Source: Escherichia coli (lineage in GTDB: Bacteria > Pseudomonadota > Gammaproteobacteria > Enterobacterales > Enterobacteriaceae). From it: a DNA stretch of 64,000 nucleotides. Both the position numbers and the translations under genes were made by a program. This document shows, piece after piece, positions 15,701-17,926 of the stretch. The notes under the pieces are model-generated. The model was not told where the DNA came from. It searched no databases and was given only the letters and a program-made list of their open reading frames with translations. The stretch is from the NCBI RefSeq assembly GCF_024298765.1, contig NZ_CP101210.1; one strand, written 5' to 3'. Every line of letters starts with the position of its first letter. Position 1 is the first letter of the stretch.

Positions 15701-15960
15701 AACCTGCCGCGCCAGTCGTCGCTGAAGTCGCAGCAGAAGTTGAAACGGTAGCCGCGGTTGAACCAGAGATCACCGTTGAGCATAACCACGCTACCGCGCC
15801 AATGACGCGCGCTCCGGCACCGGAATATGTTCCGGAGGCACCGCGTCACAGTGACTGGCAGCGCCCTACTTTTGCCTTCGAAGGCAAAGGTGCCGCAGGT
15901 GGTCATACGGCAACGCATCATGCCTCTGCCGCTCCTGCGCGTCCGCAACCTGTTGAGTAA
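12775..15960 (+). CDS. rne: ribonuclease E
   Basis: 1061 aa; N-terminal S1/catalytic domain, then Arg-rich and acidic low-complexity C-terminal scaffold. Confidence 0.97.
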
Positions 15961-15980
15961 TAATTAGCTCAAGTAATCAA

Positions 15981-16006
15981 GCCCTGGTAACTGCCAGGGC
16001 TTTTTT
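15981..16006 (+). terminator. rne Rho-independent terminator
   Basis: GCCCTGG-taactg-CCAGGGC followed by TTTTTT. Confidence 0.75.
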
Positions 16007-16033
16007 ATTTCAGGGGTAGCATCTTTGCTGTAA

Positions 16034-16062
16034 TGACATTAGCGTTACATGTACTGTATAAT
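16034..16062 (+). promoter_or_regulatory. putative sigma70 promoter with operator palindromes for the toxin-antitoxin operon
   Basis: TGACAT-17 bp-TATAAT; palindromes TAATGaCATTA and TACATGTA overlap it. Confidence 0.5.
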
Positions 16063-16093
16063 TATCATCCACGCAAAGCCGAAGGATATATTT

Positions 16094-16878
<785 letters not shown>

Positions 16879-16972
16879 TTCGTTATGTCTCATGCAAAAA
16901 AATGCCCGCCCCGGCGATCCCAGAGCAGGCAGACAAAACATACCCAGTTTCATGATATGTTTTAAAGCGAAA

Positions 16973-17926
16973 TTATTTGTTGAGCTGGAAGAGCGACAAT
17001 CCCTGCATATCGGTAAATGCTTTATACGACGCCTGCAATGCCGTTTGCTGCATGATGTAAGATGAAATAGTTGCATTCCAGTCCACATCAACCAGATCGC
17101 TCATCTGCTGCGTTTGCCCTAAAGCGCGATCGCTACCTAATGAATCCAGCGACTCCAGTTCGTTCAGCTGCGTGCCTAATTCCGCGCGAACAGTCAGCAC
17201 ATTGTTCAGCGAGTTTTTCAGTCCGCGGTTGGTTTTATCCAGTGCCGCAGCGGCGGTTTCTTTATCCGCTTCGCTATCCGCGACCGGCGTTTTCAGGGCT
17301 GCGATGGCGCTATCCAGCATGGCAAAAAGATTGGTTTCAGAAGCGCTACCGTCTGGTTCCGCTACCGCGTTGCTGGTAATACTGTCGAAAATTTTGTCAC
17401 CCGTGTGCCCTATCACCATCGAACGCGAAGCATCGACCTGTTGTTTAATACTTTCTGCTCCGCCTTCGTATTTTCCATCCGCCTCGCTAAACGGTGCGGA
17501 TTCTGTTTTATAACCGGCAAAAATGTAGCGCCCGTTACCGTCAGTGGTGTTCGCCAGATTCAGCAACTGGTCACGAAGCCCCTGAATATCCGTAGCCAGC
17601 GAGGCCCGGTCATCGTCACTCAAGGTGCCATTGCTGGCGTAGACAATTTTTTCCTGAGCATTCTGGATAGCGGTGGTGACCTGGCTAAGTACACTCTCTT
17701 CCAGTGACACTTTTTGAGTGGCGAAAGTACGCGCCAGCGTGTACTGGCTGTTTTGCGCCTGTGCCTGGGAGAGAACAACAGCTTGTGATGCAGCAATGGG
17801 ATCATCTGAAGGGTTAACGACTCGCTTACCCGTCGACATCTGTTCGCCGTACTTCATCCATTCTGCCTGAGAATTGGTGATACCACGCATGTTTTGCTGG
17901 TACATCATCTGGGTACTGAAACGCAT
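16973..17926 (-). CDS. flgL: flagellar hook-associated protein 3
   Basis: 317 aa, flagellin-like N and C termini. Confidence 0.93.
   Translation of the reverse strand: MRFSTQMMYQQNMRGITNSQAEWMKYGEQMSTGKRVVNPSDDPIAASQAVVLSQAQAQNSQYTLARTFATQKVSLEESVLSQVTTAIQNAQEKIVYASNGTLSDDDRASLATDIQGLRDQLLNLANTTDGNGRYIFAGYKTESAPFSEADGKYEGGAESIKQQVDASRSMVIGHTGDKIFDSITSNAVAEPDGSASETNLFAMLDSAIAALKTPVADSEADKETAAAALDKTNRGLKNSLNNVLTVRAELGTQLNELESLDSLGSDRALGQTQQMSDLVDVDWNATISSYIMQQTALQASYKAFTDMQGLSLFQLNK

Follow-up and report, generated by a model that had tools for sequence, protein, structure and literature searches.

In the KacAT and AtaRT systems, antitoxin and toxin assemble as an A4T2 heterohexamer whose two RHH dimers each sit on one arm of the same promoter palindrome, and regulation takes the form of conditional cooperativity (PMC6698736). 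A crystal structure of KacAT with DNA displays base contacts from R8, D10, and R12 of KacA (PMC6698736). Salmonella TacAT binds two sites by EMSA, one within -81 to -46 and one within -46 to -6 (VanDrisse et al. 2017, PMC5449658). For the Salmonella toxin TacT2, the positions F17, K29, R88, and Y137 have been described, and K29 gives the S. Enteritidis protein a higher activity than that of the E29 variant from S. Typhimurium (Rycroft et al. 2018, PMC5959882).

A further precedent comes from relBE of Escherichia coli, whose operator relO has been mapped as a left half-site, TTGTAATGACAT, and a right half-site, TTGTAATTACAA (Overgaard et al. 2009, PMC2812701). Each 12-bp half-site takes up one RelB RHH dimer, with hexads of the form [A/T]TGT[A/C]A (PMC2812701). 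Modelled base contacts of RelB come from ribbon positions 3, 5, and 7, and the R7A substitution abolishes binding (PMC2812701).

The window analyzed here, a stretch of 64,000 nucleotides of E. coli DNA (contig NZ_CP101210.1), carries an antitoxin-toxin cassette of the GNAT/DUF1778 kind. The window is chromosomal and, over this region, 100% identical to strain 104. One conserved dyad of 19-21 bp (16029/30 to 16048/49) lies over the -35 element of its promoter and, judged from related loci and from family precedent, is very likely the operator of the antitoxin.

The cassette between rne and flgL

The features of the locus, in window coordinates, are these:
15960: end of rne (from the list of open reading frames)
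15979..16002, plus strand: intrinsic terminator of rne, a 10-bp stem followed by a T-run (terminator scan)
16030..16048, no strand: predicted core operator dyad, GTAATGAC-ATT-AGCGTTAC (comparison of upstream regions)
16031..16041, no strand: palindrome 1, TAATGaCATTA, comprising the left arm of the dyad except its first G, then the spacer, then one base (the first) of the right arm
16033..16038, plus strand: -35 hexamer ATGACA, contained in the left dyad arm (promoter consensus scan)
16046..16053, no strand: palindrome 2, TACATGTA, of which only 16046-16048/49 belongs to the right arm of the dyad
16057..16062, plus strand: -10 hexamer TATAAT (promoter consensus scan)
16082..16086, plus strand: Shine-Dalgarno-like AAGGA, 7 nt 5' of the antitoxin ATG (read from the sequence)
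16094..16387, plus strand: antitoxin gene, 97 aa, DUF1778/TacA family (Pfam and PDB matches)
16384..16878, plus strand: GNAT acetyltransferase toxin gene, 164 aa (Pfam and PDB matches)

The cassette has the composition of a TacAT-type module, a DUF1778/TacA antitoxin with a GNAT toxin directly downstream in the same operon. In modules of this type the antitoxin joins an N-terminal RHH to a C-terminal toxin-binding region and neutralises the toxin, which acetylates aminoacyl-tRNA and arrests growth. The antitoxin matches PF08681 (E 1.2e-26, residues 14-88), and its best solved relative is chain C of PDB 7AK7 (E 1.4e-45 over residues 1-97, with 79/97 residues matching). The toxin matches PF13508 and PF13673, and chain A of the same entry is its best solved relative (E 1.4e-75). 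TacT, KacAT, and AtaRT entries come next (toxin against TacT 5FVJ, E 3.6e-43); in NCBIfam, neither the antitoxin nor the toxin falls in a named family. Entry 7AK7 lists four antitoxin and two toxin chains, consistent with an A4T2 complex that has two RHH dimers. We take it to be TacAT2, reportedly the entry of Grabe et al. 2021, and the residue numbering also agrees.

The toxin carries F17, K29, R88, and Y137 at the TacT2 positions, among them the catalytic Tyr Y137 and the substrate-groove Arg R88 that TacT2 needs for toxicity. Because K29 is present, an active-type toxin is predicted for the E. coli cassette. In Salmonella diarizonae, locus L019 has an antitoxin 90/97 identical to 7AK7_C and the same dyad, CGTAATGACATCTGCGTTACG. 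Given this similarity, the 7AK7 matches, and the TacT2 residues, the cassette is treated here as an E. coli orthologue of Salmonella TacAT2. Full-text literature searches on TacAT2/TacA2 operators, on GTAATGAC together with 'antitoxin', and on the PDB codes found no published operator for the TacAT2 clade. TacAT structures and the tacAT3 operator are reportedly the subject of Grabe et al. 2021 and 2024.

The toxin ATG overlaps the antitoxin stop (ATGA, 16384-16387), and in 78 related loci, too, the antitoxin gene is followed by a toxin homologue. The Shine-Dalgarno-like sequence has counterparts too, a GGAG/AGGA motif standing at the equivalent place in related loci. Upstream, the rne terminator, which is also present in cassette-free E. 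coli, sets rne transcription apart from the cassette promoter and serves as context only. Beyond the toxin gene, flgL and flgK lie on the opposite strand. A strong terminator-like hairpin occurs just after flgL, at 16903-16931 on the minus strand, with a 12-bp stem, eight G-C pairs, and a T-run; it is also found in cassette-free strains and is without a T-run in the plus direction.

The cassette is accessory. It is found between rne and flgL in about 685-686 of 5,426 complete E. coli genomes (~13%), and in the remaining genomes rne directly adjoins flgL. Alignment with a cassette-free strain (L082, 513-577) shows that 16011-16893 of the window stands in place of an rne-flgL spacer of about 65 nt; the swap is a spacer replacement rather than a clean insertion. 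A second, diverged TacAT2-like cassette with 74-82% antitoxin identity is present at another location in E. coli and E. albertii (L084-L088). Its neighbors, JetD_C/DUF7281, T6SS (ImpA_N/VasL), and DNA-methylase genes, indicate a defence or accessory-island context.

One deposited E. coli sequence departs from this layout. In strain HS-02 (NZ_CP172818.1, 1117096-1118555), the promoter and operator are intact and are followed by about 550 nt of homopolymer-rich noise that replaces the antitoxin gene. A reading of this locus as a promoter-only remnant was rejected, the homopolymer noise in the deposited 'complete genome' being an assembly or polishing artefact.

Many Enterobacterales copies also carry a conserved upstream block, about 15-45 nt 5' of the dyad, with (GG)TTCGAT(T/C)CC-like repeats such as GTTCGATCCTCCGGTTCGATTCCC (L005, L007-L009, L011-L017, L019-L024, L084, L085, L087, and L088). 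The window lacks this block, which resembles a tRNA T-arm and may be the remnant of an old integration site. A current link to tRNA integration was considered and dropped: the GGTTCGATTCC-like motif upstream of the Enterobacterales copies is not part of a tRNA according to ARAGORN.

A conserved dyad at the cassette promoter

A consensus scan of 15800-17100 finds its best promoter-like site in ATGACA-18-TATAAT, which has 11/12 consensus matches. The initial annotation had placed the same -10 hexamer at 16057-16062, with TACATGTA (16046-53) between the -35 and -10 elements, and both placements are correct. It had also been right that the -35 overlaps palindrome 1, while the register that it gave, TGACAT (16034-39), is one base off and fits TTGACA poorly. 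The -35 lies within the dyad at 16030-16048, which stops 8 nt short of the -10 and so overlaps the core promoter elements of the TA operon in the manner of autorepressed RHH-operator promoters.

The dyad was recognized by comparing the 100 nt upstream of each antitoxin start codon in about 80 loci, the window and 79 related loci from species-representative genomes, whose antitoxins are 57-82% identical to that of the window. With a dyad called at a threshold of at least 11 of 16 specified positions, 77/80 upstream regions contain it, the window counted. The consensus, present in nearly all related upstream regions, is the 19-nt GTAATGAC-N3-GTCATTAC. The dyad in the window reads GTAATGACATTAGCGTTAC (16030-16048), with a left arm at 16030-37, a spacer at 16038-40, and a right arm at 16041-48, and it extends symmetrically to TGTAATGAC...GTTACA (16029-16049). 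Most Enterobacterales loci have the same GTAATGAC-ATT-AGCGTTAC as the window, and three loci (L077, L078, and L079) have perfect 8+3+8 palindromes. The right arm in the window is degenerate, matching the left arm at 5/8 positions, so affinity or cooperativity may differ from those of the perfect dyads. The pattern GTAAYG-N7-CRTTAC has a single occurrence in the 64-kb window.

Loci with the dyad have antitoxin identities as low as 57%, and their hosts belong to Enterobacterales, Xanthomonas, Pseudomonas, Burkholderiales, Alphaproteobacteria, and Acidobacteria. Because many of the Enterobacterales loci are close relatives, their agreement partly reflects shared ancestry, a point addressed by the distant subset: across 39 distinct non-Enterobacterales sequences, information content is about 0 bits in the flanks and reaches about 1.8-2 bits in the dyad columns. 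None of the roughly 80 related loci has rne or flgL as a neighbor, and thus the dyad travels with the cassette. The comparison establishes the anatomy of the site and its conservation with the antitoxin gene, independent of genomic context, as for an RHH operator. The consensus GTAATGAC-N3-GTCATTAC, valid across many phyla, gives an exact candidate operator (16029-16049) for this persistence-associated E. coli cassette, and should ease reporter design, operator mutagenesis, and genome-wide site prediction for the TacAT2 clade.

Promoter elements are conserved together with the dyad. A -10-like hexamer follows it by 7-8 nt in 67/77 loci and matches TATAAT at no fewer than 4/6 positions in 68/77, and dyad positions 4-9 match TTGACA at 5/6 in 62/77. 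Since the left arm is also the -35, its conservation could partly reflect promoter function alone. Carried to its end, this argument makes the conserved block a strong promoter and nothing else, a -35 with a constrained spacer, bound by no repressor and symmetrical by accident. The greater conservation of the left arm than of the right arm would fit such a promoter, as would the conserved -10, whereas the sequence of a sigma-70 spacer is not normally conserved. Furthermore, the outer GTA of the left arm, which lies 5' of the -35 hexamer, is among the most conserved columns, and the spacer half mirrors the -35 half, perfectly in the three loci named above and with complementary partner bases for dyad positions 1-3 and 6 in 69-76/77 loci. 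RHH antitoxins of the DUF1778 family are, moreover, documented DNA binders (PMC6698736, PMC5449658). A promoter with incidental symmetry is improbable on this evidence, and the operator reading is retained.

The initial annotation had described two operator-like palindromes overlapping the promoter and had suggested autorepression. Its general idea, an operator overlapping the TA promoter, is supported by strong comparative evidence and by family precedent; the anatomy that it gave is replaced by a single bipartite dyad. Both strings are indeed there, TAATGaCATTA at 16031-41 as quoted and TACATGTA at 16046-53, which an inverted-repeat search also recovers. Two separate short operators, one on the -35 and one in the spacer, would also have a parallel in the two binding sites of the paralogous TacAT promoter (PMC5449658), and palindrome 1 does overlap the conserved left arm. 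However, the symmetry of conservation has its centre at 16039 instead of 16036 or 16049.5, and neither palindrome is conserved as a palindrome among orthologues. The left half of palindrome 1 is conserved as a dyad arm; its right half, CATTA, falls in the variable spacer and reads CATCA, CATCT, CATTG, or CATTT in orthologues. Palindrome 2 shares only TTAC(A) with the right arm of the dyad. It is absent from all 79 related loci, where orthologues read TTACGGTTGC, TTACGCATGT, and others, and from the diverged E. coli/E. albertii paralogues, which have TTACGTATGG or TTACGCATGG.

A survey of E. coli alleles over the 33-nt stretch 16030-16062 of the rne-flgL cassettes leads to the same view. Three alleles cover 683 of about 686 cassettes, with TACATGTA (n=81), TACATGTG (n=198), or TACATGCG (n=404), and their sole variation is at 16052-53; the dyad and the -10 are invariant in these 683. 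From these counts, the dyad and the -10 are fixed and a perfect palindrome 2 is the minority state.

Nor do the two palindromes stand out as units, their frequency in the 64-kb window being at chance level. Perfect 8-bp palindromes number 220 in the window (1 per 291 nt) and those of the 5+1+5 type 94, and at 20 places the two types lie no more than 25 nt apart. When a 133-nt intergenic region of the same composition was simulated with a Markov-1 model, both types were present in 9.9% of trials. A pair of separate operators is accordingly a reading to which we give very little credence. TACATGTA is to be taken as a chance palindrome and TAATGaCATTA as a partial view of the dyad. A match of ATGTAC (16049-54) to the KacAT arm TGTACGG was also considered, and was judged a chance 6-mer because KacA has a different ribbon and these bases are polymorphic. 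In AT-rich promoters, short palindromes that catch the eye can be misleading; here the real symmetry axis emerged only through related loci.

The dyad could also be imagined as something other than a cognate operator, either a cassette end or a site of recombination, or else a sequence bound by another host protein such as RelB. Two independent junctions do lie at its left edge. The first, between the window and cassette-free E. coli, is placed at about 16029/30, the operator edge, by the common motif GCATC(C/T)TTGCT; the second, a separate rearrangement seen in L086 against L084, also breaks at the first bases of the dyad. Selection for a functional cassette would, though, be expected to leave junctions just 5' of an essential promoter. 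An arm-like 8-mer occurs within 70 nt of the toxin stop in 5/76 loci, which is about chance, and the lack of a partner copy after the toxin gene leaves the cassette-end reading without support. As single-stranded DNA, the dyad does not make a stable hairpin (-2.1 kcal/mol, z -0.40). As to another protein, the left arm is identical to the core of the relO left half-site; against this, E. coli-type relBE is not known here for most hosts, and the dyad tracks the antitoxin gene. Either role in place of the cognate operator is highly unlikely, and the dyad is discussed below as the predicted operator of its own antitoxin.

A structured RNA or DNA element was rejected as well, the hairpin being no more stable than shuffled sequences. 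In Rfam no family reaches threshold; asX2 alone matches, and scores 19 bits where its gathering score is 70.

The antitoxin ribbon, relO, and a proposed repression model

The RHH ribbon of the antitoxin occupies approximately residues 12-18 (ESLNLRI). Alignment brings R8, D10, and R12 of KacA onto S13, N15, and R17 of the window antitoxin, and establishes the identity of the ribbon. The N-terminus, KRE(T/S)LN(L/I)RIKP, is nearly invariant across about 80 loci, and the reading residues S/T-N-R are invariant.

The same ribbon, S-(I/L)-N-L-R-I, is found in RelB as SINLRI. The two proteins are otherwise unrelated, RelB belonging to PF04221 and the window antitoxin to PF08681, with a BLASTP E value of 0.18 and only SxNLRI shared. 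The backbone-contact residues K13 and S28 of RelB correspond to R23 and T38, which are invariant in the antitoxin family. On the DNA side, the relO sequence was confirmed on K-12 (L081, minus strand, ~2909-2886). Window 16029-16040, TGTAATGACATT, is an exact 12-mer in common with relO, and the commonest E. coli allele, which has T at 16028, contains the complete 12-bp left half-site TTGTAATGACAT. Since both ribbon and half-site are held in common with RelB/relO, the assignment of the arm as an RHH site is supported. The likeness to relO is partial. Four hexads, two on each strand, make up the relO type, and the window has three hexad-like elements:
16028-33, top strand: CTGTAA
16034-39, bottom strand: ATGTCA
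16045-50, bottom strand: ATGTAA
The inner right hexad in the window is the degenerate TTAGCG, and the cognate antitoxin lies outside the RelB family (PF04221).

This likeness raises a speculative and rather doubtful idea, that RelB (PF04221) and the TacA2 clade (PF08681) share a ribbon, S/T-x-N-x-R, and a half-site core, (T)GTAATGAC(A), closely enough to allow cross-talk. Because the major E. coli allele contains the complete relO left half-site, RelB/RelE could occupy the tacAT2-like -35. Should the idea hold, strains with both modules might have RelB/RelE on the tacAT2-like -35 or the TacA2-like antitoxin on relO, and a GNAT toxin module and an RNase toxin module would be in transcriptional cross-talk; relBE occurs in 1,247/5,426 E. 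coli genomes. A simple ribbon-to-DNA recognition rule, transferable across RHH families, would also follow.

Variation within the family may bear on recognition too. Eight loci have E12 replaced by D, V, or A, and all eight have non-canonical left arms. The co-variation of residue 12 with the arm is suggestive only and becomes weak once relatedness is allowed for (Fisher p 2.6e-6 raw, 0.028 after collapsing to distinct combinations).

Pectobacterium carotovorum (NZ_FQWI01000003.1; L010 and L011) has two paralogous cassettes with antitoxins about 4 kb apart. One is canonical (KRETLNLRI, with GTAATGAC-att-AGCGTTAC), and the other combines E12V with GTAATGAG-ata-AGCTTTAC. The E12A locus L049 has an operator variant similar to that of the Pectobacterium E12V cassette. 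It looks as though co-divergence of ribbon and operator could insulate paralogues.

The following model of repression is proposed. Two antitoxin RHH dimers would take one 8-bp arm each, their two-stranded ribbons entering the major groove there, with S13, N15, and R17 as the DNA-facing residues. The arms, GTAATGAC and its imperfect inverted copy AGCGTTAC, have centres 11 bp apart, approximately one turn, which would put both dimers on one helix face. There, the dimers would most likely be bridged by a toxin dimer in an A4T2 complex. Because the left arm holds the -35 and the -35-proximal half of the promoter spacer is taken up by the right arm, such a complex at 16029-16049 would cover both, block sigma-70 RNA polymerase, and keep the operon repressed. 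Binding, repression, the A4T2 stoichiometry of the DNA-bound complex, and any response to the toxin:antitoxin ratio, such as derepression at excess toxin, are here inferred from family precedent. Autorepression by an antitoxin-toxin complex that occludes the -35 is well supported by inference from the site and from related systems. For conditional cooperativity at the dyad, which the related systems suggest, the chances appear even.

Comparison with described RHH operators

KacAT of K. pneumoniae and AtaRT of E. coli O157:H7 (PDB 5ZGN and 6AJM are cited for the pair) combine GNAT and DUF1778/RHH proteins, as here, and provide the mechanistic template for the dyad model. KacA is distant from the window antitoxin (E 1.7e-7), and its ribbon reads DNA with R8/D10/R12 in place of S13/N15/R17. 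The KacAT operator, AAATGTACGGTTATTAACCGTACATGA, has arms of TGTACGG that flank an AT-rich centre and lie farther apart than those of the window dyad, and it spans the transcription start, whereas the window dyad spans the -35.

Relative to relO, the likeness lies in two RHH dimers on one helix face and in promoter overlap, which for the window are predicted. relO consists of two abutting half-sites with 12-bp spacing, whereas the window dyad has inverted arms with 11-bp spacing and a degenerate inner right hexad. The positions also differ, relO covering -10 to +17 and the dyad the -35 and spacer. The toxins are unrelated, RelE being an RNase and the window toxin a GNAT protein.

Salmonella TacAT (TacA1) belongs to the same family as the window module, and it likewise has dyads of 18-19 nt with outer GTA...TAC arms in the promoter region. 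The antitoxins match with E 1.2e-15 only (7ZG6). The arms are TGTATA in the two dyads of TacA1 and GTAATGAC in the single dyad of the window; the ribbons are Q-N-R (QLNLRA) and S-N-R, respectively. At the TacA1 locus L092, ATGTATA-N8-TATACAT is located at -70 to -49 and TTGTA-N12-TATACAA at -32 to -11, so that one dyad falls inside each of the TacAT-bound intervals of VanDrisse et al. 2017 (PMC5449658). Within the TacA1 clade (ribbon QLN(L/I)RA), TGTATA-N8-TATACA appears twice in L092-L094 and once, in the ATG-proximal position, in L095; that paper does not seem to name the motif (PMC5449658).

The closest system is Salmonella enterica TacAT2 (7AK7), whose proteins are orthologous to those of the E. 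coli cassette; the host and the insertion site are different, the E. coli cassette lying between rne and flgL. As a whole, the arrangement is ordinary and well precedented for type II TA modules. The analysis adds the exact predicted operator, its clade-wide consensus, and its resemblance to relO.
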